Assembly: GCA_051362555.1 (NCBI GenBank)
Contig: CM120647.1
Span: forward strand, 1,364,001-1,428,000
DNA from: Lingula anatina
Lineage: Eukaryota; Animalia; Brachiopoda
DNA length: 64,000 nucleotides
Reading direction: 5' to 3'
The notes below the pieces were generated by a model, which saw only the letters and a list, made by a program, of their open reading frames with translations, searched no databases and was not told the DNA's origin. The translations under genes were made by a program, and so were the position numbers. Positions within the stretch are counted from its first letter, which is position 1. The number at the start of each line of letters is the position of its first letter. Below are positions 10,862 through 38,800 of this stretch, piece after piece.

Positions 10862-13800
10862 ATGTGGCGGGCTGGGGTGACCTGTATAAAATACGTCCTT
10901 CTGATATTGACTGTGTTGATATGTGTAAGTATGACCGTTATCTCTTATCTGTGAAGCTCATACTCAGGCAACTATATAAATAAACAGTTTTTTTTTAATT
11001 GTCTCTTATCAACTTTAGTGCTTTATTCTAGAGGCCAACTGAGTGATGAAATTGATTCCCTGCCAAAATCCCTGTTAAAAATGGTTACAAATTAGCTAGA
11101 GGCTTATCTTTGAATATCCAATGATAATCAATCCGTTGCCTTAGTATAATATAGTTTTATAGTATGATGAAGGCGTTAAAAGATTAAGATGACGTTATTT
11201 GCATGGTTTTTGGCATACGGATGAAATGTACAAATGGAAGTCCGTTATTTTAATTACGAACGTGCAATGAGCTTTGGATTTATCAACAATGATTCATCAA
11301 GAACAAATAGATTTAGTAGAACGGTTGATGATAAAATAGATAAATAAAAAATGAAAAAGACAAAGTTCATAAGATGTAAGTCTTTTTGTAGATTTGAGCA
11401 CCAGCTTTAATTTTTTTTTAATTTGAACCAAATAAATGACATTTTCGTAATTATTATTTGTACATTTCAGTTGCTGGGAGCGGCTCTTCTTGGCTCTGGG
11501 TTATGGCTCCTCCTAGACAAGAACGCAAATCATGGAGTTGATCGTCTGCTCAGACTGAACGCTGACATCCAGGGGGAAACCAGCGCATTCAACGTGGGGG
11601 GTCTGCTGAAAAGCGGTGCTTATGTTGTAATCGGGACGGGCGGTGTCATATTTGTTATTGGTTTCTTTGGATGTTGTGGAATTATCAAATCTTCGAAGGT
11701 GTTATTGAAAGTGGTGAGTCTTAACTTTTTACCGCCTTAGTTCGATGTATTTTCAATTTTTTTAGATAATCCCATGACACAAACTGAAAACCAACTTCGT
11801 ATTCCCAAATGTATCTTTAACTCATGAGATAATATATATTTTTGCGTCTGTGACGTTTGAGCTATGATTACAATGTTAAGCAACCGACTATTTGTGAGAT
11901 CCAAAACATTAGGTTATGAAGTTTTTTGTTGATAATTTCACATTTGAAACCTATAGTAAACACACACCGCAAAAAGAAGTATTCTTTATCGGGGTCATGT
12001 CGATACTCCCCCGCACCGTTACTTCCCCGCATCATTACTCCCCCGCACCGATAATCCCCCTTAGTAAATTTTTGTATTATGCGCATCGAAACGACCCCAC
12101 ACCGATAGATCCCCGCACCGATACTCCCCCTTATTATAGCCTATCTGTAATTGTGGGGGGAGTATCGGTGCAGGGACGTATAGCATTTATCATTCTATTT
12201 GGTTTGGCATTCCGTCGGCCCAGTAGGATCTTTGAAAAGCTTCATCATAATGGTGAATAGCAGAGATCAAAAGCTCTTTTGTCACATTCTTGGATTTTTT
12301 TGCTCGCGAGATATCGGACCTTTGTCTCATTGAGACTGAAGAAAATGACCGATATGACACGTCAAAATATCTCTCTTGAGTATAAAAAAGTTGGTGTCAC
12401 AGGGTCTATTTTCCTTTATTTGCCTTAATTTGCCTCTGATCGGGCATCAAATCGATCAGATTGCACTACAAATTATATGTCACACATGATATAAGCAGTA
12501 CTGACATTTACATGTAAGTGACAGGTATAAACAGAAATACTTTTTTTATATTTAATGAGAAAAATGTTAATGTTTTTTCCCCTTCAGTTTGCCGTGCTGA
12601 TGGCCATCATATTACTGGCTGGTATAGCGGGCGCCATACTTGTAGTTATATTCCAGAACAAGGTAAGTGATCCAATGGATTATTATTATTATTATTATTA
12701 TTATTAAATTTTGAGATTGCATACTAAGGCAATCGATTAATTAATTTATTAGTTAATTTAAGACTAACCAGGTAGTTCATATTCTTCCAGGTGGAGGTAG
12801 CAATTCGTAATTACTTAAATACCACCATAGTGGACCAGTACGAGGGACGGCTCAATACATCACAGCCGGCGTCTCTCGCTTGGGACGCAGTCATGATGGG
12901 GGTGAGTAGCGAGTGTGTTAGGTGTACGCACATTGTGTAGGGTGAGACAGAAATGCGTTCGCTGCCACAAACTTTGCTCTGGGTTAGACAGAAGTATTAG
13001 TTAGTAGAGCACACCAGTGGCGGGTTTGAGGGGGGGGGGGGGGGTCAGGGGGGTCATGATCCCCCCCCCCTTGATTTCTGAAAAAAAAATCGCATCAATG
13101 TTTCCCTCTTAAAATCAGAATTTAGACTGGCTGAATTAAAGTTCTAAACCGTGCTTAATGGCCCCTTCTAAATTACCAAAATTTCGGGGTCATTCAGCAG
13201 ACCCTGAACCCCGCGCCGAGAGGGGGTGAGATGGAGTCGGCTTGGCATCTGCGGACCCCCCTTCAAATAGTCCTAGATCGGCCCCTGCACACATTGTGTG
13301 GTTAATGCGTAAACTACTGTATCCGACAGACTTAATATTATGATGATGCCACAGAGGGCATTGTCTGTATGCTTCTAGGTGTATTTCTTTTTATTACATC
13401 TATGCTGGCCCTCTGCGACGTAATGTTGTCACCGTTATTTTATTTTATTTTATTTTATTTTTTTTTTTTTTGCCAAGCGTTATTCTGATTGAGGATATGA
13501 TATAAACCTCGTTGGCTGAAATCGCCAGTTAAGAGCAACAGGTTAGAAAGTGGGGTTCAAAATTACCTGTGAATAATGAAAACCCAACAGAAACTCTAAT
13601 CCCCCTCCCCCCCTTTTTTATTATTTTATGATACGATTTTATTAATATTTTGAAATCTGTGTAGAAATGATGATGTTACCTATATTTTGTCTGACCAGTG
13701 AAAAGATGCGCGAGTTCCAATTTTTTACACACAAGGAAAAATAAGTTATGAATATTATATTTACGTACAGGTGTTATGTGTATTTAAAGAAAACGTGCAC

Positions 13801-13982
13801 GTATAATGTAGCTTGTTGTTTAAAGATTTATCTTATTAACAGATGCGGTGCTGTGGTATTGACGGCGGCGACGACTTCAGATATGCCACCAGATGGGATC
13901 ACACTATAGTGGACACTGGGAAAGTAGTCCCAGGTGAGTCCCCCCCCCCCCCCCCTCTCTCTCTCTCTCTCTTTCCATTAAA

Positions 13983-14014
<32 letters not shown>

Positions 14015-15512
14015 ATACCCCCCTCTCTCAGTGTCCCTTAACTCTCTCTCTTTCTCTCTTCCCCCTCCTTATCTCTCCCTCTCTCTAGTAAAGCCGACTT
14101 CTGTTTTGCTGACTTCCCCGCCCTTTCCCTTACGCTTCGTATGTAATGTAAAAAGCACATTTTATATTTGTATATGTAGGAAAACATTGTCATCCCGATT
14201 TTACCATTGTTAAGATTATAATTTAATTTAATACTAATGTTAAATGTTAAATATAGTTATAATCCAGTCAGAGAAATAAAATTTCACATTTTCAATAACC
14301 GCGTTAAAATTTGGTTTTTAAATTTGGTTAATAAATATACAAAGTTATTGAAAAAGTTCACATCTGTTATACAATGTTCCTTATCGTTTTGTCTTTTTAC
14401 TTCCCTTTCACAGCGACAGTGCCGCGATTTTGCTGTGAGATGACGGCGGAAGGGAAGGAAAAGTTCCAACTGGGAAAGATGACGTCAATAGATGACAATG
14501 ACTACGTGGACCTATACGGTTGTGCCACATCACCAAATGACGTCAACTCTAATATACAGACGGTACGAATAGTTATCAGTGTGTTATGTGTATTAATAAT
14601 TCTGTCAATGTGAACAGAATAACTTTTTACTGTTATGTGTGCACGCTTGTATGTCTAACAAATAAATACTCGTCCTTTTAATTTTCTTTTTTTCTTCTCA
14701 TATTAATTTCTCACGCTGTTATTTGTAGACAGAGAATAGATAAATGGATACACGAACAAATAAAAAACTAGGATGAAGATACGGAGTGAAAATGTATGAA
14801 GAAAAATGAAAAAGCAAGTAATGGTTAGATGTATATTGAATCTTGTATTACTATATACTCGTATGCATCGTATGTTCTCTTTTTCAGGGGTGTTACAATG
14901 CAGTGAAACAAGTGATAGAAAACCACCTCGGGTTAGTGATAGGGATCGGGGTAGGAATCGCCCTGTTGGAGGTGAGTGATAAAAAACAACGCATTGGGTT
15001 AGTGATATGGGTCGGGATAAGTATAAAAAAATCAGGGACGGAATATGTCCGTTTGTGGTTTGGTGTGTTTTCGGACTTAATTGGTATTTATTTAAGCACT
15101 GCTATAGTGACGTCATTAGACATATTTCGGATCGAAGTGAGTACTTATGTGAGCCTGACTAGATACTTCAGTACAAAGTAAGCAACATGCTCTATTGTTA
15201 GACTTCATAATTATATGTTCTAACTTCAAGAAAGAGAAGAAATTTTTAGTTTTTTGAGATTTTAAACGTTTGCAGTTTTTTCTTCCATTAGCTGATGGTC
15301 AAACCAATTATTTTCCCATTTTGAGTTAAAGTAACCATTATTGTACCACAAGGTAACTTCTTTCACCTGAAAATGCTCCTCTGTTATATTTACAGCTGTT
15401 GATCATAATATTTTCCTGCTGGTTGTCTTGCTGTTATAACAAGGAGGACGAGGACGATTACAAATACGAGAAACCCATGTCTACAATGGAGGAGGAGACG
15501 GCGAACATTTAA
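10862..15512 (+). CDS. Tetraspanin paralog 2, complete, 310 aa, 8 coding exons
   Basis: Exons 10862-10924 (MWRAGVTCIKYVLLILTVLIC), 11471-11713 (LLGAALLGSGLW...IGFFGCCGIIK...), 12588-12662 (FAVLMAII...FQNK), 12791-12901 (...AWDAVMMG), 13843-13933 (MRCCG...), 14414-14562 (VPRFCC...GC...), 14888-14971 (GCYNAV...), 15396-15512 (LLIIIFSCWLSCC...ETANI*). All GT-AG with consistent phases, 933 nt. Four TM segments plus the tetraspanin GCCG, CCG, PxxCC and GC motifs. Confidence 0.93.
11996..12178. repeat. Short repeat/MITE built from ccccgcaccgatactccccc units with an inverted terminal copy
   Basis: Several direct copies, plus inverted gggggagtatcggtgcagggac at the right end; lies in a tetraspanin intron. 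Confidence 0.55.
13015..13287. mobile_element. CAG...CTG MITE with 5-bp TSD (CACAC)
   Basis: Ends cagtggcgg / gatcggcccctg, flanked by CACAC on both sides. Internal segment shared with 42955-43206 and about 47868-48000. Confidence 0.65.
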
Positions 15513-17937: not shown

Positions 17938-19317
17938 TCACAGTTTTCCCATTCGCGCCAACTTGGCCATGAGCTGCTCCAGGCAGTGTTCAATGGCGCC
18001 GCTGCGGGAACTTTTCGTGGCGGATTCGCTAATTTGAGTGCAATCAGTGCACTGAGCTCGCCACTTCCACTTCCAGCCGCTCACTCTACCATGAACGCTG
18101 TAGTTGACTCTGCACCCAGGTTTCCGCTCAATCTAAAGGCAATGGGATATTTTTTTTTTCAGTCGAAATGAAAATAATTTTCCTTCAAGGTTTCAGTAAC
18201 CATTTTCCGTGCATATAAACTAACGGCATGTGCTGTGTTTACTGCAATTTAAATAGAAATTATCGGTATAACAAATTTACGCATGCTGCTCCACTTTCTT
18301 TTGGACGCAAGCGAAATACCAAACATTTATGAGTGTAATGAGTGTAATCTGTGAGATCATACATGTATGGAACAGGTACGTTCCATTATTCTGTTTGAAA
18401 AGCTCAATAACCCAGAAATTATCAAGTTGGAATACCATGCTAATCATATATAGATGTATTATACTTTACTAACTATAACGTCTCCTATACCAGAAGGGAA
18501 CAGCTCAACACTTGGAACTTGCATTTTTAATTATTATTCTAGCAAAAAGCACAATTAAATACATGTAAATTAGTATTATTACTATTATTATTATTTTGCT
18601 TCCAAATTTGTGAGAAACAACTGAACAGATTCAGATGCTTCGAAGCTGAATCCAAGCTACATGTACATGTATGCGATTGGCATACATGCGCTAGTCAGAA
18701 ATGAGAAAATGTGAGTAGCGTAGACGATTACGTAGGTAAATGCTACATCCGCAAACTTGTAACCCACTTCTGTGTAGCATATGGTACATTTGTATTTCAC
18801 TTAAAGATAGTAAAATCATTTTAGTTAAGCAGCCTGCAAGTTTGCGAAGGGAATTACCGTACTTTTGCCTGCCATGCCCAGTTGTAAACGCACGCTTTTT
18901 TTCGCCATAGCTGTTTTTGTACAACACAGACAAAAATAAACTCAAATTTCTCAAAAAAAAAAAAAATAATAATAATAATAATAAAAAAAAAAAAAACAAA
19001 ACTTATAACTAAGTGATGTGGAAAACGCCTCGTCAGAAACTATTTAATGACTTAATTTGTTAACTCTCTCTCTCTCTCTCTCTCTCAGTATAACTCATGC
19101 AGTAACTTACCGATCCACTCAAGGCATCACAGGCACACACTAGAGCTGGAAGAAGAAAAAGACTCAAATTCACTCAGTGTTGAACAATTGATAACTAAAA
19201 TCACTCACATGCAGAAACATAAATTAATCACGCAGTTAAAAACAAAATGAATAAATGTCAGAACTTACCCAGCAGCAAAAGAACTGCAATGCAAGCACTT
19301 GTCAGTCTACCTCCCAT
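17938..19317 (-). CDS. Secreted cationic 4-Cys protein, anti-lipopolysaccharide-factor (ALF)-like, short form, 92 aa
   Basis: Exons 19317-19269, 19145-19111, 18132-17938 (GT-AG, phases 1 and 0): MGGRLTSACIAVLLLLALVCACDA-LSGSIERKPGCRVNYSVHGRVSGWKWKWRAQCTDCTQISESATKSSRSGAIEHCLEQLMAKLARMGKL*. Signal peptide, upstream TATA box, AATAAA at 17833-17828 (-). Clear paralog of 20745-22179. The gene model is strong; the ALF family call rests on motif recognition. Confidence 0.85.
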
Positions 19318-19369
19318 GTCTGTTATGGCTGTTGTGTTCTCTTTTGTTCGGAATTGAGAGCAGTCGTTG

Positions 19370-19377
19370 TTTTTATA
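19370..19377 (-). promoter_or_regulatory. TATA box of the minus-strand ALF-like gene
   Basis: TATAAAAA on the minus strand about 55 bp upstream of the ATG at 19317. Confidence 0.55.
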
Positions 19378-20129
19378 CAGCACGACGGTCGTTCCCATCT
19401 GACATGCGAGGTCATCAGGTCAAATTATGGGTGTACGGCAACCAGGGCAGTCATTATCAACTACAACGTTTTTTGCTGTTTTGATTTGTATAAAACTCAA
19501 GCTCTTTAATTGCACATGCTGTCCTAGTGATTTTTGCCTTTGATGTTATCATTTCAATTTATTAGTACATATCATTTACGGCTGTGTTCAATTTATGAAT
19601 CAGCGGGAACCCGGGTTCTGGGAAGATTATTGTGGTGTTCCCTTTTTTATGAACCCGGATTTCAGGTCGGAGAGCGCTTTGAGAGAGCAAAAACATAAAG
19701 AGTTGTTTAGGACTTTTATATGTAGCCTACTGGGTAAAAATATGGCCCAGATTTTTAAAATAAACTTTCTAAAAATATAGTAGGCCTTAAAGCTTGCGAA
19801 TGGTATTTTTACTACTGGAAATTTTTCAACGTATATAGAAATAAGTATTGTCGTCGGAGAAGTTATAGACATTTTCGATATAAACTTTTTTCTCATTGAA
19901 GCGGTCACACAAATAAAAATAAATTTCTGTAAATTACAAGTTGGCGTGCATTTTATAAGAACATGTATCAGCGTTCTAGAGCAGGCCAGGGCTTAGTAAA
20001 AAGTTGCAAAATTTTGAAGGAAATTGGAAATGAATTTGAAAATCCTCCTCAGCAAAAGCAGTCGGACAAGTCGCCCCAGGGGATAGTGCCTTCCTATACA
20101 AATTGGTTACTGAGTGTACCATTTACAAA

Positions 20130-20194
20130 AGCAGAGGGCGCAGTGAAAGGATCTGGTGCCCTTAATCCCGAGGTCCTAGGATTGAAGCCTAGCT
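20130..20194 (+). pseudogene. Decayed initiator tRNA-Met copy
   Basis: agcagag-ggcgcagtgaaag...cccgaggtcctaggattgaagcctagct aligns with 47703-47774. Anticodon mutated (cccttaa), indels in the D arm, acceptor stem broken. Confidence 0.75.
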
Positions 20195-20744
20195 AGCTTC
20201 TGGACAAGTTAACTTTTCCTGTCTTCTAAGACATATGGTTAACCCATTTCCTTTACCAAGCGAAGGTGAAAAATCCTGGTTCTCGAATTTCAGGACATGT
20301 TTTCAGATATCACCAGCTTTTGACAATCCTATTTAATGTGACGAATGAAGATTAGGGTAAAAAATGTGTGTCCTGGAGAAGGCTTGTACAGAGGGGGTTT
20401 CGACCGTTTCTTTTCAATTTGCACTACATGAAACCACTAAATATATTTTAATTGTGATTTGAATTGAAGAGAAATTATCTTGAATTTTACTGTTCGTGTA
20501 TATACAATTATCATACACACACCTAGAAAAAAAAACGTTTCAGTTCAAAAATTTAAAATACATTGTGCAGTAATGGACACCCCCCTTAAATCTCCTCATA
20601 TGGAAAACATTTAAGAGCAACTTCAATTCCTGTCTGTGGTACTGTGTTTGGAAGTGGAGAGCGCAGTACGCTGAATTCCCGCCTCAACTTGGTCGCTCTA
20701 CAATTATCTTTTAAGATAAAACTTTCGAGACTCATTGCAACGCC

Positions 20745-21571
20745 ATGGCTCGCGTTCCCTTGCTGCTAGCTGTGGTCGTGTTGGTGGTGGTAACGTGTCA
20801 AAGCCCGGTACAAGGATCATGTAAGTAGAACAGTGCGTGCGTAGAGTTTTTCCAGGGTTTGTTATGGAAGGCGTAGGCCTACAGTCATGTAAGTACTTGA
20901 AGTTGCAACGGCTGGTTTTTTCGCAGCTCTAGATCTTCCATTAGCTTTCTCAATCACGCTCTCGCGCACACACATTCACAATTGAGAGAGAAAGAGAGAG
21001 AGAGAGAGGGAGAGAGAGAGAGAAGAGAGACAGCGAGAGAGAGGAGAGAGAGAGATAGAGAGAGCGAGAGAGTTGGAGGGAAGAGAGAGAGAAAGAGAAA
21101 GAAAGAGAGAAAACGACAGCGAAATTTCCTTTCTTGATTTCAACGCAGTGGCAGGTAGTAGGAAAATGACAACATTAAATACAATTCGTTCATCCATGCT
21201 TTCTATTAGATTAAAGTTAACGCAATCCCTCGCAATCCATAGCATAAATTTCATATATTAATTTTTTTAAATTATTAAAATAAGTGCAGATCAAACATCC
21301 TTCAAACATCGGTCAGGAAAGACACATCTTATTCACATTAAGTCCCGGGTTGAAAATGATGAGTAACGCCGTGGGAACGTAGCGGTCCCGGACCATAGCT
21401 CCACACTCATAGCGTCATAACATAACTCTCCGGGAGTTTTTCTAACCATCATTGTTATTCACTTGAAAACTGAAGCATTTTTTTTTTCAATTTTGTGACC
21501 GTAGTATCTTTGTAAATACTTTTTTTTTTTGTAATAGCATTTATGACTGGATTTGAAAATCCCCAGCAAAT

Positions 21572-21607
<36 letters not shown>

Positions 21608-21700
21608 TTTGTTCCAGCGTTCACGCTCCAGGGGTTGATAGCCTTGTTAAGGGGAGGAGTAAGGATTGCTGACCAACTCACTGGTATAAATGGACAGGTG

Positions 21701-21732
<32 letters not shown>

Positions 21733-22179
21733 ATAATTTGGTCGATATCTCCCCGTAAGCATGCCCCTTCGGCCCTTCGTACAGTCATGTTTTTTTTATT
21801 ACTGTAAATAAATCTTCCTTTTAAATCTTTATTTTTTTTAAATATCTGTTTTATCAAACCGATGTTCACATTCTTAAAAGGGATTATCAGTGATTTACAT
21901 GCACTATTTATCATTACTTATTTAATGAAGAGCAATAAAAACCCGGTGCTATCTAACGCAAGTGTAAATTTGTTCCAGGTGGATCGCGGAAATAACTGCG
22001 CCATCAACTGGAACGTGAACATCTACCCCGGCTTTAAGGTTCGCTGGATGGGTGTCTGTGTGGACACGTGCACGGGGGTGACCAGCGTCTCCAAGAAAAA
22101 CTCCAGAAGTGGCGCTCTCGAGCATTGCCTGGAAGATATTTACACGAAGATGGCAAGAAGAGGCCTTCTCACCGGTTAA
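20745..22179 (+). CDS. Secreted cationic 4-Cys protein, ALF-like, long form, 118 aa
   Basis: Exons 20745-20820, 21618-21697, 21979-22179 (GT-AG, phases 1 and 0): MARVPLLLAVVVLVVVTCQSPVQG-SSFTLQGLIALLRGGVRIADQLTGINGQVDRGNNCAINWNVNIYPGFKVRWMGVCVDTCTGVTSVSKKNSRSGALEHCLEDIYTKMARRGLLTG*. Good Kozak context (gccATGg), signal peptide, SRSG motif and C-terminal helix. Confidence 0.87.
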
Positions 22180-23193
22180 AGCTGCATACAAAGTCAATTT
22201 TTTGTCACAAAAACCAACCAAATGCCAGCGTATAGTTTCAAGTAGTATAACTATAACTAAGAGAATTACCAAAAGGCATTGTTTAATTTTACCTGAAAAT
22301 GATGTTTGAATTGATTTTTCTGCTAGCATTTTATGCTGTATGTCAATGGAGCGGAAAAGTAGGTCACGAAAGTAGGTTAAATTTCCGACCAAAAATTAAA
22401 AAAAAGGAGCAGTCTAAAGCTCTTTTATGGCTGATCGAGTGATCTATTCAGTTTATCCCTTGGCATGTCGTATAAGAAACTAGTAGAAGTGGTTTACATG
22501 TGTTACTGGGAATCCACGCTCCACCGATGCTCGGTTCGTATGTACCTTTAAAGTAGCTTAGCGCGTTTGTCTTTCTTAATAATGTTCGTAAAGGGCGTCC
22601 CTTAAACTGAACTATTCATTTTGCAAATATGGCTTCATTTATTTAAAAACTGTATTCTGTAATATGATTATTCGTCTGTTTTGCAAATACGTGCTTTACA
22701 AATTTTCAAAATAAATAAATAAATAAAATAATTGATATTTTTGACAAAAGATTTGGTTGTACATCATAAAGTGCAGAAACCGGGCAGAGAAGGCCTTGGA
22801 ATAGGATTGTCCACCCCACACCCACCGGCTGCCATTTTTTTTTTTTTAATTTTTTTTTAAAACAATGTTTATTCATAGGAAATGGAGGCAAAGCGCTAAA
22901 AGCATTAGATGCTCTCTATGTAGAACAAAATTAACGTACACAACTAAATGCAAACATTAAAGATCAGATTTCAGTATTGGAACACAAAAGTTAGCAGAAA
23001 TAATTAAATACAGAAAGAAAGTGCCGTGTTAGTGTGGATTTTTTTCTGATCACACAAATTAACTGTAAATGTTTGCATCATCTGATAAATGCAGGGTGTT
23101 CTTAAATATTACCCTAAAAACGCCGAGCGGCCAAGTAATAATGTTTGCTCGATCGATAGCCATATATTAAAAAAAAGAAAAAGTTACCACTAA

Positions 23194-24634: not shown

Positions 24635-24811
24635 GATACGAAGACTCCATTGTGCGTTCCGTCCGATGACGTCAAATTTGACATGACGTCATATGGTGAC
24701 GTCATATGGTGCCTTTCAGTCCACGATATTCGAGCCATAGGTCGCAATCCGGCATAAACGCGTGTCTTAGTTTTTCGTTTATCTCTAGAAGCGCAATGAT
24801 GCAGAAAGTGA

Positions 24812-27800
24812 TCAAAGCGCCAACCGAAGCCCAGCAAACATTGCGGCGCTGATTGCACCACTCACGGGTACCGTGACAATCCAGGCGAAGAAAATGTTCC
24901 GGAACAGCTTCCAGTCCACGTTCTCGCGAGACCGGAAACGACCGACGCCGACGATAGATCCGACCTTGCAGTGGGTGGTACTGATGGGGATGCCGATGTT
25001 GGAGGCGACCAGCACGGTCAGCGCTGAGGCTATCTCGATGCAGAAGCCACTGAAGATAAAATAGGTCATTATAAATGTATTACACAAAAGGGTTTTGCTT
25101 ACGAGGTTACAGATTTGTTGAGTAACATTATACGTGTATCTAGAGAAGAACGCCATTAATTTTACGCTCAGGTGTTTACATCATAATTTTTGGAACGCAA
25201 AGCTTAGGTTAACAAGCGTCATTGATCTCATTTCATTTGAAATTGTACGTTATCAACACGCCCTACCTTGACGGTGTGATCTTCGTTAAGTCATCTCCGA
25301 GCGTCTTGATAACACGTCTACCCCACACCCACAACCCCAGTGAAATCCCTAGGCCGCCATAGAACAGGATCCATATCGGTGTCGCCATCTTTTGGTGAAC
25401 TTCTCCCTCTATACCAATTATCCACAGGGCGACCACTGGCCCTATAGCGTTGCTGCAATAAATTAATTAATAAACAAAGACGGTAAAATAATAACAAAAT
25501 GAGATTTTAGATTAAAAAGTACTATAGATCACTATCGTCAGGGCTATTTTAACATTTATTCAGTACGCACTGAGGGCTATTATGTTCTTTTTTATCAAAT
25601 AATTATATAATTTTATTTCAGTCAGATTGTATTTCTTTTGAACGAATGGTTTTGTTTGAAAAATATATTAGACTTGCGATTTTGTATCGAGATAATAAAT
25701 CAGTTACAGCAGTAATGGACCACATAAACAAAACATTGCGATCGTTAATAATAATGAGTACGGATGCTATATTAAAGCAAAAGTAACCCATTAAGTTCTT
25801 TAGCAGAAAACTGAACATTTATCTTTAACAAATGTTAATCAATGTTTTTGTTCTCTAACTTTTAAATAACATCAAGTCATTTTGTAAAACCAGCCCTAGC
25901 GGCCGTAGTAAAGACTAATCGCTTCCCCACCTGACGTCATTTCCGCCATGCGCAAAAGACCCAAACACTGCCGTTAGAATCTGGAGTGCGTAAAACAGCT
26001 TGGCGGCTTCCGGTGAATCTTGGATGTTTTCCCGTCCTTCCTCTTTCCTGGCGCTCTCCTGGGAACAGGAATCAGAATCAAACGTTTTAAAAGGTCAGAA
26101 AAGGAACAAAATTCAATACATTAGCCTTAAAGGCTTTATTTATAGGCCAGTATTTCTAGCGAAAGGCAACATATTTTTACTTAATTTTGAACCAAGTTAA
26201 TGTTTGGAATGGCTTATTGCAGGGTGTTACTACTATACTTGTACTAGTAGTGGTGGTGCGAGCAGTAATAGCAGTTAATTACTATGTACATGTTGTGGCG
26301 TACAGGTGATAGAAGTAATCTATTGAAAATTGACCTGTGTAGTAGTGTTATGAGTTGGGACGAAAGCTTTCCATGTATGCTTTGAGTAAAATTGTGCAGA
26401 AACTGTACAGTTTTAAATTTCATCATAATGAGTGATAGTAATACAGTATTGTGTTGTAAAATACAGCGTAGAAATGCCAGTATTAGTCATTCTCTTTACC
26501 TTCTCCTCGTCGATACTAAGTTGTTCATACTGCAAGCTCCTTCGGTAGGATTTGTGCGAGTGGACAGACTCATTGTCAAGATCTGAAAACGAACAATATT
26601 AATGTATCTAAATAACCACGTTGTACTATGTACACTTTGCATCAGTGCTATATGTACTAGTACATGTGCATTTCATAGTGGTCTATACCCTTTTTTGTCA
26701 CTGTGTGCACAACATAGCTTTATAAGGCATAAACTTGGTTTGTGTAAAGACTGGTATATAACCGGTAGATTTGCCCGTCATCAGCTCGTCACGCACCTTT
26801 AAAAATCGTTTAAAGAGAGGCAAGATCTTTAAAAGCATACAGGTTGCGTTATTAGCGGCCATTTTTATCGCAAAATATAAAGTTTCTTCAACACTTTTGC
26901 CATTTTAACCTTATTCGCTTCGGTAAGCTATATCCAAAAGTGTTCACAGAATTTATAACCAATTTTTTTAATTCAAAAGTAATCATTTTTACCGTCACGA
27001 ATTGAGTTCTAACCACCATCTATTTCTTACCATTGTAAGAGGATTTCCAAAATTAGAAACTCTTATCTGAAAAACGGGTCTAGGATGGTTATGTAGTATC
27101 TATTAATGATTTTAACTATAAAAATGTGGACGAGCTGAAATTTCCAGAAAAAAATATTTGCTACTTTATAAATTGCTAACACTCATAGTGTCCCTTTATT
27201 AAACATGTAGTGTGTACAATAAAAGTGACTGCTGAGGGTGTTCCGGAGAAATACCTTTGTCTTTCTTGAAGTTGAGGCCCAGCAGGGGTTTCACGGAAGG
27301 CGAATGTGGCAAAGAGTCCTGTAAACAACATACTCAGATTTTATGGCAAGGACCGGTTACCAGAACTATTGCAACAAAATTTATCATTTATTTCTGTTTG
27401 TCTGTTTGTTTATCTTTGTAGTACACCATTAATTTTAATTAAAATATCGATATACTGCCTGTTTAATCAGCCATATGGCAATTCATTCACTTATTTACAG
27501 TGTGTATTCATTTGACTATTTATTTATTTACTTTTGTTCACTACTTGCCTCTCTACTAAAATCATTCCGTTCTCCAGAGTCACTGCTACTGGCGCTTCCA
27601 ATTCTTTGTTTCAGTTCTACTTCCGTTGCCTGCTTCTCCTTGGTCACTGCTTCCTTATCGTCTTCACTGACCACGGTTTTTGGGTCTGCAATAGTTGGGA
27701 AATAAACATAAAACATTTAGAGTAAGTAATATACTAATGCTCACCGATTGAATGAAACACATCAACTGAATTTGCAGAGCCAAAATTTAGGAGAAAGTAA

Positions 27801-30800
27801 ATTCTTCAATATCGCCGCGGTTGTTAAACATAAAAATGAATAAAAAAAAACAAATACATCCTAAAATGTTATACCGTTAGAAGAGTCGCTTTCAATCTGA
27901 TTTTCTTCGTCCTCCGTTTCACCATTCCGTTCTTTCGCGCACTGTGCTGTAAGATTACAATGTTCAAATATCAAACTTCAATACAGAAGAAACAATGCAT
28001 CAAATAGCTTCTTCATCCTAAATTATTCTTATTTAATATATTTAGTACCATATAAACTATGATTGTGATTATTATTTATTTGAATAAGTAATACTGATAA
28101 CAATATAAATATTTATTATTTTTCTTATTCGATGTTCAATTGTCTAAACCTGACCGCTCGTCGCGTCTGAAGTTCAATGTTTGACAAAAGTTAACATCAC
28201 CAATCACAGCTGTTAGCCATGCCTGTTAACAACACCAAGCGCCCATAGGAATAACTGGACGCAAGTTTATGATTAGCGCGGTCAACTACAATCAAACCCT
28301 TGCTTACTACTCTGTGACTCTCCAGTGTGTAAGGTAGGTTCTACTTGCCTATTATCCGTCTCCGTTGCCAAGGGACGAGAAACAGCCAGACCAGGAGAGC
28401 GCAGACAAGTCCGCCCCCGAACGCTGCCGAGAACGTCCCCCATATCGGGATCAGGTGGAAGTAGAGCACTATGAGGGATAAAGTGATACTTGGGAGTGAA
28501 TGTGATGATATAAATTAAAGTGATATTTTGCAAAACATTTAATCTTACTCTGATAAGTCACGATTCAGGTCAGTAGCCAGCAATTTCAAAAGGGGGTTAT
28601 TTTCCTGAAAAAGTGGGCCTTTTACTGTGAAACCTTCTTGTACCATATAACATTTGACCCAGAGGGGGGCTTTTCCCGGCAAAAAGGTGGCTTCGTTCGA
28701 ACCCTCCTAACCCCCTATCCCCCCCCCCCCACCCCCGGCTAGGGACCTGAGATTAGTGGATATAATCTTAATCAATGTTTTTCATCTTTTATATAAAAAA
28801 AAATAATTAGTTGTGTAAAAACCACCACCTGTAACTTACTTTGCGGACCCTCGTAGAACACGGAGAACAGGTTGATGGTGAGGGTAGCGCCGTAGAAAAG
28901 GGGAAGAAATCGCATCCCCCATAACAGCGGGTCCGGCTGAAAAAGACCACAATGTGTATCACAATCCTCGCCACGTGAAATATTAGTCATCAATACGACT
29001 TCAAAATATACATGAAATACTTACATCTTATGCCACATCCCTATATGAAAGATTGTATGTATGAGATACATGTTAGTCGTTGAGGAATTGAAGTCAGTCT
29101 TTTACTCCTTGAAGAGCTTGTTCTGTTGACTAAAAACAGCGGTCAAAGGAAAATATTACCATGCGTGTTATACCGAAGAGTCGTTCCCTATGCCACATCA
29201 GGCTACAATTTACTTACAAATCAAGACGACCGGGCCCCGTAACTCGAAAGCATAGCGTATTGCGAATAGGGATATCACATAGAGGCTACAATGTATTACA
29301 TTGTATATGGGGCGGGTTTGGGCGAGTTATGGAATCGAGACGCTTGCGCTAGGTCGCAATGCGCGATGCTTTCGAGTTACGAAGCCCAGCTTGTCCAAGG
29401 TTTCAGCTTTACCAAACGTTGACAAATGAAAGCGTTTTTATGGAAATCTAAAGTTTGGCATAAGACATGTTCTTACTTCTATCTTTGTATACTTACCTTG
29501 GACAGTATGAAGTAATAGACGAAGAAGAACACTCCCACTGACACCAGGCCCGACAATATGGGGGACACGAACCAAGAGGCGACTGAAGATCACAACATGT
29601 AAAATAACGAAAAACAAAATAAATTTATTTGTTTAAAACAAAAAACAAAAGAACAAAAAACGCATGCAAATGTGTGCACGTGCATCTCTTCGAGACGTCA
29701 AGTAACACATGTACATGCATCTTATGAAATCATTCGATAGTAAAAAAAAACATTAATTTGCGTTTAATACTACAAATTTCACTACATAAATCTTTGCAAG
29801 GAAAATCACAAAGCAGGTGCCCATATCATCTCTGAAGTTGAACACGTACTTATCATTCCAATTTTCTTCCAGTTGACTCCCGCGGCGCCGTGCGCAACAA
29901 GGGCGAATCCCATAGTAGCCCCCACAATGCTGTGCGTACCGGAAACTGGCATGCTAAAGAACGTTGCCACTAGCAACCAAATACAGGAACCTGGAACGAG
30001 AAAAAATGGTTTTATGACCATGATGTGATATTGTGAAATAATTGTCATTATCCATGGGCTGATAATAAGAAGGGAATTCAAACATCTTGCCTTCAAACGT
30101 TAATTGTTCAAAAATTATCTGCAGTTTTTCTTTGCCTTTTGTTATTTTTGAAGCAATTACAAGATCACCTCTTTCCTAATTAAGTGAAAAATTTTAATTT
30201 ACTCAAACTTATCAAACTGTTTGGCCGTCTTCCTCAGTGAAATATTAGTGTGAACAATGCGCCAATGACTATTTACTGGTGTGTACGGCTACTAAGTTTT
30301 TTAACTTGCTCAAATCCTGTTCTCAACTTTAAATCCCAAATTGGATCTACTTCTCTGAAAGATTTATCTGTATTAATCCGCATTGAAAACGTTTTAGTCT
30401 CAAACATTAGCCTTGCGTTTCTGGAGGTGCAAAATATTTAATAAGACCACAGGGGCTGATTTATTTGTTTATTGATTTATTGATCAATTTTATTGATTAT
30501 TGATTATTTTTTATTGATTTATTGATTTATTTTCTACCAATGTGAACTGCAATGTTTGTTTCGACTATTATTAGACATTTTTTTATTCTTGCTTGAATTT
30601 TCTTTTTCTTTTTCTTTTAATGTAAAGCCTCACGTGACTTGGCGACCTCCTCTGTAACATTCCAGTTAACATATTACCTGTCTCTTCTCACGTAGACAGA
30701 TATCTGTCATTTCGTGAAAGCCGCTTTCTGCTTGGGGTTTTGATTGAAAGGTGAGCATTTTATCACCGTGTTATTACCATTGTTTTGGCATCATAATCAC

Positions 30801-33328
30801 GCGTGATATCATGAGAAAATGACAAATTGCTATAATTATTTGACGGCAATATCGCTTGTATGGGAGGAAGTGTCGTAAAGCGTTGTCACCAGTGAAGCAC
30901 GCGAAGACATGGAGTGAAATTGTCATCGTCTTCAGGAAAATCATCATAAAAAAGGAAGAGAAAAGAAAAAAAAGTACAAAATTGTGCTCCGTCTCTTCAC
31001 ATGAGGCGCATTTATCGGCTGTCACGTACACGCCACTGTATTCAGAAAACAGGTATGACGGCGGCAACTTTTTTGCGTGGGAGCCAACGATGACAACAAG
31101 AGACTCGTCGCTTTGAGACTTGTTGCCGCTGGTTTGCGCCTGAGAAATTTAAGTGGAAAGAGCAATTACTCTGTCCCCTCACTTGGTCACTGACTGATTG
31201 GACCACTGGCGGGAAGAACTTTCGACCACAGGCTCAGAAAGTGACTGACCCAGCTTATTCTGATATGTAATGTTCAGTCGTTGTCCATGGCAGTGGTCAA
31301 GCAGAAGATCTGAGCTGCATTCACACCGAGGTAACAAGGATGTTAGTCCGCCATGAAACGTAGTCCGCCCCCCCTAATTTGCGCAGGTGACATTAGTCCC
31401 CAAAACCAACCCAAATACCCCAACTAACCCTAACTGTAATAATCCTACGAGAGCCCAGACGTCCATTCCTAGAACTATCATTCCTGTCACACCGGGCATT
31501 TTGATGAGAACCAAGCTGTCGGCTACTTGCGTCTTCGGTCTACCCAACTGAAATTTTTTATAATGGCAATGCCACTTAACTTGATAGGTCCCTTTTAAAT
31601 TAGGAGACGTACGTACTACTGCAGTAAACATTGTTTGAAATGAGAGCACGGGATGTGAAGAGAACACGGATCTTAGTACAGAACATGAAACTGATGAACA
31701 TTTGAGCACGCCCAAACGAGCGCGCCCGCGCGCGTGTATGTGTGTGCGTGTGTGTGTGTGTTGGGCGAAGGGGAGGGGGATAGAGTCAATTTCATTATTT
31801 GCATGAAGCTCTGAAGACGCCTTGCAATACACGTACAGTGTTGTCCTCCAATGTGTCTGTCTAAAATTGGCCTCCTATTTGAGAGACGCAACGTTCTAGC
31901 AATCTCTCACAGATTGGCTCTGTAGTGGAAAGTACAAGGCGAGAACTTTCTCACAGCCTATCCATTATTGTCGGCAGATCGTTTGTCATGATCACCAGCT
32001 AAGGCGTCTCTGGTGGAAGACCGCCTTAAAGCGTCACCTGATGGATGACAGTTAAGGTGAGCCACGGCGTTCAGCCAAGGTTACGACATCAGACCATGGG
32101 AGGATTGTATCTGATGGAAACATGACTGACACACACAAACAAACAAACAAACAAATAAACACACACATACTCAAATACCAACACTCACGTCACATTTTCA
32201 GTCAGCTCAATTTGTCATATTCGCAGTTATAAAATCTATCAACAATACGAACGTCTTCGTCACGCGATCTGTTACGCATATTTCGCAATCTTCTAGAATA
32301 TATCTCCACGTGTCTTACGCAACATTTTTGTCGTCATGTCTGTATAACTTCCCCAATTTTTTTGGTTATCTGAGCATTACTTTAACCTTATTCTTATACA
32401 CTTTTCTATATCTTGCCATCAGTTTCAGTCGTTGTGCGACCTTCAGTGCCATTTTTACTATGGTACTTATTAGTCTCTTTTGAGGCGATCTCGACAGTTT
32501 GACATTCAACCAAGGACCTTTTTTTTCAAAAAATAAAATTAGCCTAAACACTTGTGTAAATTTTCAAAAATTGTCTTAAAAGACAGGAATTATAATAAAT
32601 CTTGACCCAAGATAAATGAGCTTTACTATTCCAATTTAATGAAAAATTGCCACCGTTTAAAAACTGGACTAGCACGTCTAATACTAACCAAAGTTATTCT
32701 ATTCTATTCTATCCTGAGCTACACTGTACGACGGATTTCTTCTTGCCTAACGTAGACAAAATGTTTGGGCTAAATGTAATGGCCTATTTCGGTGTAAAAT
32801 TCTTTGATGGCTCCGGCTCTCTGTCTCTGGCAGTCCCCCCCCCCCCCCCCCCCCCCCACAGAGCTCATATGTCCAGGTGCCAAGTCGTTAAGTTCCGTTC
32901 TCAAAGTTTTCCACTACGGTGTGTTAAACTGAATAAACCCTGTTTTATTCACCCCAGAGTTGTCTAGTTGAAGTGTAGCATGGCCGTGTCATACCTCGAG
33001 AGTTCTTGGACAGTTTAATACTAGGGTACCATCTGGTCAATCACATGACTTTTAAACGGCAAACCAAATTCATCCAAATACGAAACCAACAGAGATTTAA
33101 GAAAACGAAGATTTTACACAATGTGCATTTGAAAAAGTACAGAAATGAAAAATCAATCAAACAGCAAGAGAGAAAATTAATCGCACGTCATGTGCATTCT
33201 GAAGAGACCTTTGCTCGTGACTCGCGCAATTTTAGAGCCTGATCATTACATTTAGCCCTGATCCATTTATATAGCACATGTCACTCTTATTTATGTCACC
33301 TGTCACGAAAGAAGGCGAGGAAGGCATT

Positions 33329-33375
<47 letters not shown>

Positions 33376-33467
33376 TGATTATCTGTCTGAAATAATGGTA
33401 AATTTAGAAACTGGTGTGATGTGTGAGATGACATTGGATCGAGCTTTGCGTCGTTTCTATATGATGC

Positions 33468-33523
<56 letters not shown>

Positions 33524-35850
33524 TGTGTGTGTGTGTGTGTGTGCGCGTGCACGTGTGCTACTCTGACAAAATTTGAACATCCAGAATTTGTCACAAAAGG
33601 TGACGTTTTTTTTTTTTAATTGTCTCTTTGCTTCTTTTGAAATAAGTGAAATAAAAAAGTAAACGGTGCCCGAGATTTCGGCTTCTGTGTCTTCTCCAGG
33701 GTCCAAAATGAAGAATTGCTTATTTTGCGCACGACTTTGTTGTGAATTATGAGTTCAAATACCACTCCACGTGCCGCGGACAATTACAAGTTCCACAGTG
33801 TCCGTATTAAAACTGAGTGAGAGACTTTGTACAGGCACCAGGTGCAACTCTAAGATGAAAGCTGACGGAGATTTTTGAAACAATGGAATAGTCACATCTT
33901 AGAATTTCAACAAAGAACACCTTCTGAAAGCTAACCACAATTCGTGTCGCGAATCTATGTACATGAATTAGCCACCTTGCAAAATATTGTTTTATCTGTT
34001 AATTTTGCACTCGGAATGGAAATTCCGACGTCTGAGAACGAGAACAACGTGAATAAACTTTGCCTTATGGGAGAAATATGACGGGAGTCCATGAGTATTT
34101 TTTGTAATTTCACTTAACGAGTGAACATCGAATGATTGAAACTGGTTATTGTTGTCAGCGTTGGGTTTTCCAATAACGACTTACACGTAAATATTTAGAA
34201 CACGGACTACCATTCCTGTTACACCAGCATGTTTTATTCCATCATCTGACCATTGTCCTTTTCTATAAGCATGTCTTTGAGCTTGCTGCGCACCTTCCTG
34301 CCATGCCATGACGTTGTCATTCATTCCACTCGCCGTCAACAAACAACGTACACAGTATGATAAGCGTTCAAGACGCATCGTTTAACTATGTTTATATTTT
34401 TATAATTGGCAATGTTCTGGATATGGTAGTGTGAATGGAAAATGTCACTTTTTAACCCAGTGGAATGGTGTGTGTTTCTGTGTGTGTGTGTGTGTGTGTG
34501 TGCGTGTGCGTAGTGCATGTGTGCGTATATGCGCGCGCGTATGTGTGTGCTTACTTGGGTGTGTGCGTGTGTATGCGTTCGTTTGTTCAAATTCGCAAAA
34601 AAAAAATGATAATAGATAAAACTTGATCAAAATCTTTTAGACGGACAAACACACATTAAGAGTATTCTTTAAGGACAACGCATATTATGTCTTAACCTTA
34701 ATTTCTCAAGTAAAAGGCGTTTCACCTCCAAGAAGTATTATTGTCATTAACAAGAGACAGAAACGCGCAAGCACCTGCCTCGGGTCAGAAAACACTCTGA
34801 TTTATTCTTATTTCAGCAATCATTAGTTCTCTCAGGTGGGCAGTGATCTAACGCCTGATAACAGCCAGCAGTCAGCGGTTGACGGGGTCCTGGCCGAGAA
34901 GATAAACTTTGCCTCTCAAAGGTCAGCTTGGGTGGGCTTATCGCCCGACATCACGGCAGGATGCTGCTGTACAGACTTATTACCAGAAACAAAACGTCTT
35001 TGGTCCCAGGACAAAAATAGTTCAAGCCAAGAAAAGCAATTTATTAATCGACATACATATAAGGCAATTAGCTTTCACAGAAAGTCGTATATCAAACTGT
35101 AAGATCCAGCACGTTCTGCTGTTTCATGGTACGACTGGTTCTTGTCATCAGCCTTTCCAAACCCACTTTTTCTATTTATTTATTTATTTGATTATTTATT
35201 TATTTTAAACATATAAGACACAAGTGCTGTATTTAGGCATTTATTGTAAAGTTCCTTGAAACTGAAATTGAGCATTGTTACCGATACAATGTACCCCAGT
35301 TACTAAAAAAAATACCGAAATAACCACCTTTTAATTATTTTGGTTTAATCAGATGTTACAAAAAATCGTCTTAACATAACCCTGGAAGATTAACTAACGA
35401 CAAGATAAGGCGTCACCCGCTTCACACTATAACCCTGCCAAGTTTTGGATACAGTGCCTTCGAATATTTGACTAAAGTAAACCGGAGTTTGACGTACGAT
35501 ATAAATGAAAAACTTTAAAATTAAAATCCAATTCAGGGTAACTAAAACGCCAGAAGTATCTGATATTTTGTGAAAGTGCTTTGAGACTGTAATGGGCCTT
35601 GTCATAAACCATTTTATCACGATAATTATTAACACTCGTTAATAGTGGTTAAAGTAAACTGCAACAGCACGATGGAAAAAATAATTGCAGGACAGCATTT
35701 CTTCTCGTTGGTTAAAACAGTTTATGTACAGGTACACTAGTTTTCTTGCTCTGTTTTGTTTAGACGAGCTTTAGCCTCAAGGCATAGTAACTCTGAAATG
35801 AACCGTTTCCACAAGTGTGGTGAGATCCCGCCATTACATTTCACTTGTGT

Positions 35851-35895
<45 letters not shown>

Positions 35896-38800
35896 AAAGT
35901 ATATAAATAATCTTTTTGGTAACTTTCCTAACCCTAATTCCTAATTTTCCTAAGAGAGTATGATAAATAGTAAACCAATAAGTCTTTTTGGTAATTTCCT
36001 TGCCCTAAATTCCTAATTTTCCCAAGCGAGAACGATAAATAGTAAATAAATAAATAATCATTTTGGTAATTTTCCTAACCCGACTCTCTGACCTGAAGCG
36101 ACCGTGCCTCACCTCACTTTTTCTTGTCAACTTCAACACTTTTAATCAGCCCGCCAAAAAAGTCACAAACGCTCTTAATTCAAGATCGTGACAGATTTAC
36201 TGCAGTTTGCCTTTAAGTGTCTTGACAAACGCGGCAGGATCTGGTGACAAATCTCCTATGTCCGTTACTGTACTATGTACACGGCATTTCCCTTATTGTT
36301 ACAGGCACACAGCGAGCCTTAGACATATATCTTGCAAAACTTCTGGATATTTTACAAAAACCTCTTAGCCATTGAGGTATCCCATATTCAAATCTGATCA
36401 CAGAATTACGACCCACAAATCTGTTTTTTAGTTACGAGTTTGTTGTTATTGAGTCATCTTCACGTGGGATGCAAAGGATGGTAGATTTCAATTGTGGTGG
36501 TAAACATTAAAGGTTTATCGTCAGATTGTAGGAATGGCCTGAACGGAGCATATTCTTCAGAAAACATGCCCAACTAACGATATCTTTACTCAAATACACA
36601 AATTCATTTTGTGAATTTTGGGCCTTGAAATAAGTCCTTTTTGCTCGGCCTGGGAGTTAATGAGCTACGTGGTCACGTGGTCCGATGACGACAATCGTGC
36701 CACCTGAGTCTCTTCCCCAAGCAGCGTGTTTAGCTGTCAAGCTGACCTGCATTGTCTACCTGTAAGATGATTTTTCTGACTCCTGATAAAAGTTCATACT
36801 CACTCATTCCCGAGGGGCTAAATGCTCGTAAAGCCGTGTGAAGCCATTTTCGAGTCTATTCAATTATTTAACTAGCATTTAATTATGGTTATCCCAACTA
36901 GTATAAAATACTGCATACGAATGACTTGCGGGCACTTTTGATCATTCGATATGGGGTCCATGTTATTTGTGAAATTCAATTCAATTCCATTGCGCCCTAC
37001 GGCTCATCAGAATGAAATGCAATAAAAATATAAAGTCATAAAAACAACAACAATATAACTACTACTAAAAATAATAAAAACTCATCAGACTGACGTTAAT
37101 CTTAGCTCCGATGCAAATTTTAAGTACTTTCATAACTTGTTTAATTGTGAAACATTGTTAAGTGATAACAATTTAATTAGCTTGAAAACACTTTGCTTTG
37201 TGTAATATATTTTTTGATGTATTTCTGCCTGATTGTTCTGTAGCAAAGACATTTTTAAATTCTTAAAGGAATAAAATGAAATTCATCCTCGATGGCATCT
37301 AAAATACATAGTTTACAGGTTCTTAATTTTTATTTGTGTCCATTTACCTTTAAGTTTCCACAGCTAGATTATGTGATGGAGATTTAAATTTGGCAATTAA
37401 TTCCTTGTATTTCTGTGAAATCGGCTTATTTAAATAGAATTGAACTGTAAAATTATCAACAAGATGTTGGTACAATAGCCCTTTACTCCTTGTGGACATT
37501 TCTCCAGTCAATGTTTGTCTAAAATGATCTTTCAATCTTTACTCTATCAAGCACCTTGGACAAAATATCGAGTAATGCCTGGGCATACGCATGCCGCGGT
37601 GCGTAGTCAACTACCATGCATTTAAAATGCATCAGCACTTAGTAAGGTTGTCAACTGATGACAGTTAAATTGAAAGACTATCACCTTTTGATATGATCTA
37701 AACCACTTGAGGCGACCATAGTCTCGAGCATCACATCTATTGTCACCGAAGTTAGTAAATAAGTCAAGGAAGACCGTCACAGATAAAGAAAGAAGATTGT
37801 CAACGAGTGCTGCTTTTTTATGAATCCCACAGCAACACACTGAGGGATAACGAAAATTGCCCAACCCCGTTCAACACAACTTTCCTAAACTTCTATGTCT
37901 GTATCCAGCATGCATGTCAGCTGAGTCTCAAAACCTTTATCGTCTTTGTCGTCAAAGTACCACGTGACCCAGATCTGTTGCTTCATTTTTGCATATTGTG
38001 GTGAGGTTTATTAAAACGTTTTTTTTCTACCAATAGATTGTTTTTACACTTTTTAGAAGGTGAAGATCGATTAAAACATATATCTAGTGTATGAATTGAG
38101 TGCTGATTCGTCAAAATTCGAGAAATGGAGTTTAACGTGTCTAGAATCCTTTAAATATTTCGAAATTTAGAACAGGTTCACAGGTTTTCATTTTTGCATC
38201 GGCTTTCCATAGGAGATATTTTGGCACTGAAGGGGGGGATTGGAGGGGGCATTGAAGGGGAAAGGGAAAATTTTCAAATGTCCAAAAACATTCATCTTTA
38301 CTATATGTAAACGCGAACCTTATGCCTGTAAAAAGCCCAATAATAAAGACTCCTTCAATATTTTCTGTTAACTCATTCAGTCTCTCCTCGGGTTTTGTAT
38401 TCCTTATGTACATGTACCAGGGCGACGGATTGATTTTTTCACAAGATATTCACAGATATGTCTTTAGATAAATAGACAGTCATTCGATTCTCTGGCTTTT
38501 TAAAAATTTTCCTATAACATCTGCCACCCTGGTAGAGGGAAAGTTTTGTGCAGGAAACAAAACGGCAGTCAAGAACCTTACCTGACAGTGCACACACGTT
38601 GCCTAGCATTAGGAGGTCTTCAGTACCGTTATACGGCATAACGTCAATGATACCTTTTCGAATTGTGTCCGATACTTTTGACCCTGCGGAGACAAATATG
38701 TAAACACATAAATAAGTCAACATATAACAACAGCTAATAGATAAACATATATGCCCAGAAGTAAATACTTAAATAAAAAAATGTGTATAATTTTTAACTA

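Follow-up and report, generated by a model that had tools for sequence, protein, structure and literature searches.

A head-to-head gene pair in Lingula anatina encoding small, likely secreted proteins that are probable remote relatives of anti-lipopolysaccharide factors

Anti-lipopolysaccharide factors (ALFs) are called exclusive to marine chelicerates and crustaceans in a 2018 study, which defines them by two cysteines flanking 20 residues and, for shrimp genes, assigns the sheet to exon 2 and the helices to exon 3 (PMC6213531). In the same study, three- and four-cysteine ALF-related shrimp sequences (the MjALF-E1 group) are placed outside the authentic ALF clade; scygonadin is described as anionic with two cysteines in two studies (PMC6213531, PMC9409781). 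ALFs are reported to bind lipid A via charged sheet residues (PMC10672452, PMC3701609), and one of these papers counts seven such residues in ALFPm3 and states that Group D ALFs, with two of the seven, bind lipopolysaccharide (LPS) 20-fold less (PMC3701609). Here we describe two divergently transcribed genes from a 64,000-nucleotide stretch of the brachiopod Lingula anatina (contig CM120647.1, positions 1,364,001 to 1,428,000; "the window", in which all positions below are counted). The original prediction, made from the sequence alone, had considered ALF-fold proteins in a host that is not an arthropod, and the brachiopod source confirms such a host. On balance, we favour the reading that the pair encodes small, likely secreted ALF/scygonadin proteins with rewired disulfides and an innate-defence role on anionic microbial surfaces.

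Gene models and links to ALF/scygonadin

The two paralogous Lingula genes are real, spliced and expressed. As had been proposed, they form a head-to-head pair of three-exon genes with start codons about 1.43 kb apart (1,428 nt in the gene models), and exon joining shows the phase-0 second intron to be common to both. The plus-strand gene encodes 118 amino acids (aa) and has GT-AG introns of 797 and 281 nt, the minus-strand gene encodes 92 aa and has GT-AG introns of 123 and 978 nt, and the intron phases are 1 and 0 in each. Their exon-3 peptides share 41.5% identity over 65 aa (E ~1e-12, tblastn against the window), and tblastn with these peptides found no third ALF-like copy within the 64 kb. 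The minus gene, which had been called hidden, is indeed absent from the open reading frame track but was already annotated in RefSeq as LOC106180694 (XP_013420223.1). This RefSeq model is 119 aa long and starts at an ATG at 19398; the 92-aa form is better supported because that ATG lies upstream of both the read starts and a TATA-like box. A word-based search with minus exon 3 among proteins of 35-112 aa gave no match, the 119-aa RefSeq form lying outside that range. Exon 3 of the plus gene is 100% identical to Lingula anatina XP_013420245.1 (LOC106180713), from which the window protein differs at three positions, all in the leader. A second near-identical pair on another contig (LOC106155455 and LOC106155456) could be allelic or have arisen by recent duplication. 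All these Lingula proteins are named "uncharacterized" in RefSeq.

Both N termini are strongly hydrophobic, with best 11-residue Kyte-Doolittle means of 3.84 and 3.45, and putative 24-aa signal peptides were placed by hydrophobicity and, for the cleavage site, the -3/-1 rule applied by eye; authentic ALF leaders have 16-28 residues. The mature chains would then comprise 94 aa (plus) and 68 aa (minus). Counted past residue 24, cysteines lie at 59, 79, 83 and 102 in the plus protein and at 35, 56, 59 and 78 in the minus protein, with net charges of +5 and +7, so that our recount agrees with the cysteine spacing and charges given originally. The C-terminal residue of the plus protein is Gly (codon 22174-22176); a C-terminal Gly is a possible amidation signal.

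Comparison of sequences makes it very probable that the pair are remote homologues of the ALF/scygonadin family (PF11630). A two-sequence exon-3 profile retrieved 48 proteins at E<=0.001 among 1.84 billion, a second-round profile (38 sequences) retrieved 27 proteins, and 12 of the 38 members of alignment A2 match PF11630 at E<=0.05. When the family profile was run against 177,635 PDB sequences at E<=1, the sole match was 2JOB, the shrimp ALFPm3 (E 0.52); single-sequence PDB searches returned nothing meaningful. ALF clusters were listed first in the ESM Atlas for the plus protein (0.93 and 0.91) and, as a lead only, for the minus protein (0.83 and 0.82). Two proteins bridge the Lingula pair and the ALFs: P0049 and P0039 both have the canonical C-x20-C, score 39.6 and 43.8 bits with PF11630, and are 48% identical over 50 aa and 39% identical over 56 aa, respectively, to the minus exon-3 peptide.

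The Pfam comparison that the original prediction had called for gave weak PF11630 matches for both proteins (minus exon 3, E 0.00058; plus exon 3, E 0.029; full plus protein, E 0.042), but the scores of the pair (20.4, 15.0, 14.5, 18.3 and 18.4 bits) all stay under the 25-bit gathering cut-off, which speaks against the homology. The same sub-threshold scores would be expected if the Lingula proteins were an unrelated family with a small fold like that of dsRBDs, the domains that bind double-stranded RNA, and an ALF likeness that is only compositional. Among 22 pair members and relatives scanned with PF11630, 12 scored above the cut-off (the score of tandem-repeat proteins being a sum over repeats), four below it, and six, including the closest clam proteins, had no match; cysteine and intron positions are also unlike those of shrimp ALFs. 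Such convergence is largely answered by P0049 and P0039, which combine the canonical C-x20-C with a passing PF11630 score, and we consider it very improbable. Matches to PF25087 GMPPB_C, DUF6736 and G6B, all below cut-off, were rejected as chance, and locus L001, the one locus among 373 candidates in a single-protein search, was rejected as a 16-aa match in unrelated GC-rich DNA.

Like the ALFs of crustaceans and horseshoe crabs, the Lingula genes have three exons and encode small cationic precursors with a hydrophobic leader, a predicted four-stranded sheet on a helix, an alternating amphipathic hairpin and an S-R-S-G-type motif before the helix. They are nevertheless not authentic ALFs under the published strict definition. 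Authentic ALFs carry three helices on a four-stranded sheet and, in shrimp, have a mature length of ~98 aa, whereas two helices are predicted for the plus protein (94 aa) and one for the minus protein (68 aa); the third ALF helix is missing from both and the first from the minus protein. The pair further differs in having four off-position cysteines (likely bonded C1-C3 and C2-C4), in retaining one or none of the seven lipid-A residues, and in holding the sheet and the C-terminal helix in one exon (exon 3). The MjALF-E1 group and scygonadin resemble it as ALF-related proteins with a non-standard cysteine pattern, which PMC6213531 sets apart from authentic ALFs; scygonadin differs in being anionic and in having two cysteines. 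The idea of divergent ALF relatives therefore survives as remote homology and fails for ALFs in the strict sense on cysteines, helices, lipid-A residues, Pfam score and exon layout. What had been put forward as a candidate undescribed family is instead a branch of the known ALF/scygonadin superfamily.

Predicted fold, disulfides and charged face

The predicted models are compatible with the ALF-like fold proposed originally, as superpositions on 2JOB indicate, though dsRBDs score alike. For the plus protein, the model (pLDDT 69.7 overall, ~75-85 in the domain) shows a helix at 29-37, four strands and a helix at 95-112, and the minus exon-3 model (pLDDT 94.1) has four strands and one helix. In Foldseek, 2JOB was the top match of the plus model (E 3.7e-3, TM 0.52/0.59), and in VIA it aligned with this model at Z 7.7, root-mean-square deviation (rmsd) 3.8, 85 aligned residues and 19% identity, tied first with dsRBDs. 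With the minus model, 63 of 64 residues superposed on 2JOB (rmsd 1.6, Z 7.2), which stood at Foldseek rank 28. The comparison with ALFPm3 structures suggested at the outset put 2JOB first in Foldseek and level with dsRBDs in VIA for the plus protein, while dsRBDs ranked ahead for the minus protein. Two results count against an ALF assignment by fold: dsRBDs score level with 2JOB on the plus model and above it on the minus model (Z 8.8 vs 7.2), and neither model had a Foldseek match at E<=0.001. Since dsRBDs tie with or outrank 2JOB, the fold is ALF-compatible but not ALF-specific, and it is the sequence links that single out ALF.

The fold searches also raise the idea that the proteins are dsRBD-like, i.e., secreted cationic binders of extracellular double-stranded RNA or other nucleic acid, for instance in antiviral defence. 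dsRBDs share the strand and helix arrangement of the predicted models and populate both fold searches, with Z reaching 8.8, rmsd ~2 and 64 residues aligned; the structure tool itself cautions that Z 7 to 8 is usual for a common arrangement. They carry a basic motif at the helix start, where Lingula-type proteins have Ser-Arg, and this Ser-Arg is invariant in the 11-sequence alignment A4. One relative among the 22 scanned gave a faint dsrm match (E 0.027), but none of the 38 A2 members matched dsrm at E<=0.05, and PF00035 was not listed for either Lingula protein at E<=10. dsRBDs also use an N-terminal helix on the minor groove, and the mature minus protein has no such helix; unlike dsRBDs, the Lingula proteins have a leader and cysteine pairs. 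With all sequence evidence pointing to PF11630, a dsRBD-like identity seems unlikely.

The cysteines of the Lingula proteins probably form rewired disulfides, C1-C3 plus C2-C4, as suggested by the models and by the co-occurrence of cysteines among relatives. In the alignment of the profile with 2JOB, the Lingula-type C1 faces His32, two residues before the ALF Cys34, an offset of C1 that recurred in all alignments, and neither Lingula protein has a cysteine at the canonical first position. Counted gap-free from the strand-3 aromatic, C2 stands at W+4 and the canonical second cysteine at +6. The C-x19/20-C spacing is considered a coincidence because a two-residue backshift of both cysteines breaks their cross-strand register. 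In the minus model, where strand 10-18 pairs with strand 21-29, C7 lies opposite residue 32 (adjoining C31), so that C1 faces the C3-bearing loop, and C28 opposite Y11; the same register puts C59 opposite C83 in the plus model. C2 is on the inner sheet face in the model, toward the helix. The census of cysteines covered 97 domains from 68 proteins, after 24 duplicates or cluster mates, two domainless proteins and one partial domain had been dropped, and comprised 11 four-cysteine domains, six with C2 and C4 only, three with C2 only, 17 canonical ones, 51 with none, three with C1 only (all in one protein) and six truncated ones. C1 and C3 are jointly present in 11 of the 20 complete C2-bearing domains and jointly absent in the other nine, six of which hold C2 and C4 without C1 and C3. 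A C3-C4 bridge is argued against because Mya, Clytia and Amphimedon keep C4 without C3.

Several points weaken this assignment. C2 occurs without C4 in three complete domains, three repeats of P0043 have a cysteine in the C1 column and no C3, and BLAST or MAFFT can pair C2 with the canonical second cysteine through a two-residue gap. The bonds are drawn from model register and co-occurrence rather than from atomic distances, and the relatives are not independent. The second disulfide originally proposed, tying the sheet to the helix at EHC, remains likely as to its EHC cysteine, but the C-x19/20-C pair does not correspond to the hairpin disulfide of ALFs.

The charged face differs between the two proteins. 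Mapped by hand on the profile-2JOB alignment with strand 3 read gap-free, the minus protein keeps one of the seven ALF lipid-A residues (R53 for K46, plus a His in the place of K35), whereas none is kept in the plus protein. Most of these residues are also missing from some accepted ALF groups. The outward face of the minus protein presents R36, H42, R44, K49, K51 and R53, with Val, Tyr and Trp (three Trp) pointing inward, and the plus protein has only K72 and R74 as outward basic residues. Hairpin net charge is +4 (minus) and +1 (plus), and the amphipathic hairpin with a cationic face is clear in the minus and weak in the plus protein.

A mechanism along these lines can be proposed. After removal of the signal peptide, the outward face of the four-stranded sheet, which is predicted to pack on the C-terminal helix (a further helix, at the N terminus, being predicted for the plus protein alone), would bind lipid A, lipoteichoic acid or similar anionic polymers. 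In the minus protein the basic face may have been rebuilt nearer the hairpin tip over the three Trp, which would make it likelier than the plus protein to bind anionic bacterial surfaces and perhaps to damage membranes. Given K72 and R74 as its only outward basic residues, the plus protein would be expected to be a weak or differently aimed binder or recogniser, like the anionic Group D ALFs of shrimp.

Transcription and surroundings of the pair

The features of the locus are listed in Table 1. Eight of nine listed raw RNA sequencing runs were mapped, the minus gene being examined in four and the plus gene in all eight, and reads covered the minus gene in three and the plus gene in six of them. 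X1 and X2 had no reads on the coding exons examined and are not informative about expression. The stranded run X4 showed transcription of the two genes from opposite strands and exact junctions of the minus gene (18132/19111 in 91 reads, 19145/19269 in 89). Exon 2 of the plus gene was masked in read mapping as repeat-embedded; loose read ends connect 20820 with the first bases of exon 2 (X4, 58 reads; X6, 241 reads) and the last bases of exon 2 with exon 3 (X4, 31 reads; X6, 311 reads), and because they match the exon 2 sequence on both sides, they show its inclusion. The splicing of both genes, for which a check by reads had been suggested, was thus seen. Reads start at 19333-19334 for the minus gene and at 20649-20671 for the plus gene.

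Table 1. Features of the gene pair and the region between the genes
Feature	Position	Strand	Basis
Plus gene, exon 1 coding part, likely signal peptide	20745-20820	+	exon joining, reads, hydrophobicity
Plus gene, exon 2 (80 nt), predicted N-terminal helix (residues 29-37) and linker	21618-21697	+	loose read ends, model, RefSeq protein P0003
Plus gene, exon 3, ALF-like domain with four Cys, stop codon	21979-22179	+	exon joining, reads, model
Minus gene, exon 1 coding part, ATG at 19317	19317-19269	-	exon joining, reads
Minus gene, exon 2 (35 nt), likely signal-peptide end and first mature residues	19145-19111	-	flanking junctions in X4; letters between joints in X7 and X9
Minus gene, exon 3, entire ALF-like domain (four strands, one helix, four Cys) and stop	18132-17938	-	junction reads, model
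TATA-like box, function suggested by position	19377-19371	-	upstream of minus read starts, downstream of ATG 19398
Intergenic region of ~1.3 kb between divergent transcript starts	19335-20648	.	read starts

Expression was strong in some runs, with a mean depth of ~1,000 to 1,900 in X9, and differed about nine-fold between X5 and X6, which belong to one study. Many reads are just 90-95% alike to the window and therefore come from divergent individuals or a close species. Among the listed differences of plus-gene reads, nine silent and nine changed codons were counted in X8 and six silent and four changed codons in X5; none alters a domain cysteine, and the codons are too few for a selection test.

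The TATA-like box of the minus gene is one of four TATA-like matches in 19200-20760, and no kappaB consensus site was found between the genes with the patterns used. About 30 nt upstream of this box, at 19409-19422, the nuclear-receptor half-site is perfectly repeated in direct orientation with two bases between the copies (DR2), the sole such repeat in the window and found in 0 of 100 shuffles, a post hoc test of a site first spotted by eye. At the start of the plus transcript, 26 nt (20649-20674) match minus exon 3 with 84.6% identity (E 0.01) and encode a similar nine-residue peptide, a likeness that is either chance or a duplication relic. Directly after the plus stop codon, 372 nt (22183-22554) flanked by short direct repeats are skipped by reads in X4, X7 and X9 and covered on both strands by reads of X1, in which the plus gene itself is uncovered; this is likely a repeated element whose insertion into the 3' untranslated region is polymorphic. 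Four of the six neighbouring ORFs scanned had a Pfam match. They point to a tetraspanin gene at ~11400-15200 on the plus strand (PF00335, E 4e-10) and an SLC20/PHO4 phosphate transporter gene at ~24800-38800 on the minus strand (PF01384 in three exons).

Relatives across animals and possible roles

Names were looked up for 20 of the 48 first-round profile matches, and the named relatives come from Mercenaria, Ruditapes, Mya, Clytia, Amphimedon, Acanthaster, Didymodactylos and Adineta. Four-cysteine relatives occur in clams, and other cysteine variants in Clytia, Amphimedon, Acanthaster, rotifers and tandem-repeat proteins. The literature searched, subscription journals being outside its coverage, gave no account of ALF-like genes from Lingula, from clams, from rotifers or otherwise from outside the arthropods, and no link between ALFs and dsRBDs; one study lists PF11630 for an Adineta gene in a table and does not comment on it (PMC12220480). 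A quick tree of 94 rows and 74 columns left 38 of 90 branches open and included no arthropod ALF, and no origin or direction was drawn from it. Two four-cysteine relatives of Mercenaria, P0023 and P0025, have near-consecutive accessions and longest contigs of equal length, which suggests a local gene cluster in the clam too. Several machine-called fragments among P0007, P0008, P0009, P0013, P0029 and P0084 start with intron-like sequence ending in Gln at the start of Lingula exon 3, and these starts hint at a phase-0 intron that may be common to the whole family.

The relatives also bear on another reading, in which ALF-fold proteins would do something other than antimicrobial work, within the secretory pathway or in secreted material: they might bind lipid, glycan or phosphate, or serve in mucus, in the shell or in reproductive fluid, and killing would be an arthropod specialisation of an older domain. 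C termini resembling the endoplasmic reticulum (ER) retention signal KDEL were found in 15 of 54 single-domain relatives, including six of the 11 four-cysteine ones, and a stricter ER-retention pattern in nine of the 54, compared with 0.07 and 0.015 expected from composition. In Acanthaster-type proteins the KDEL-like motif is appended past the domain end. This statistic is tempered by relatives that are not independent, several of them fragments, by a looser pattern picked after seeing the data, and by a final Leu that often occupies a conserved hydrophobic ALF position. The domain also occurs in other settings, namely as Cys-free tandem repeats and in a fusion with a death domain. Repeat proteins of 225-640 aa hold two to five Cys-free copies; among them, P0006, P0010, P0011, P0018 and P0020 (525-639 aa, metagenomic) carry three to five ALF-like repeats, pass the PF11630 cut-off and in most cases have an N-terminal hydrophobic stretch. 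P0034 (Amphimedon XP_019860122.1) is a leaderless death-domain protein that ends in an ALF-like domain bearing C2 and C4, and is possibly a cytoplasmic sensor or a fused gene model.

Weighing against an antimicrobial function of the Lingula pair, besides the KDEL-like tails of their relatives, which fit ER retention, are the lipid-A residues that were not kept and the plus hairpin with its net charge of just +1. On the other side, Trp, Lys and Arg abound in the minus hairpin, and both Lingula proteins lack a KDEL-like tail, so that they would be released from the cell. We take seriously, but consider rather unlikely, a role other than an antimicrobial one in secretions or the secretory pathway, and we give antimicrobial function slightly better than even chances. 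Given the tailed relatives, the ancestral role of the domain may not have been killing.

A wider scheme, which we hold to be less likely than not and with less confidence than either homology or rewired disulfides, would make ALFs a single branch of an ancient superfamily of eukaryotes whose fold resembles that of dsRBDs. Lingula and the venerid clams would represent an unrecognised four-cysteine branch, with a two-cysteine sister form in Mya, Clytia and the sponge; disulfides would have been rewired and the ER tail kept or lost. Tail-less secreted members might then be overlooked brachiopod antimicrobials, and those with tails, in bivalves and other animals, a form that is stored or stays in the ER.

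With the pair and its relatives, the ALF/scygonadin superfamily takes in brachiopods and bivalves as well as rotifers, a hydrozoan, a sponge and a starfish, which changes its inferred age. Farmed clams thereby gain candidate defence proteins, and the minus protein, at 68 residues, would offer a minimal natural scaffold of the ALF fold on which to test what parts bind endotoxin.

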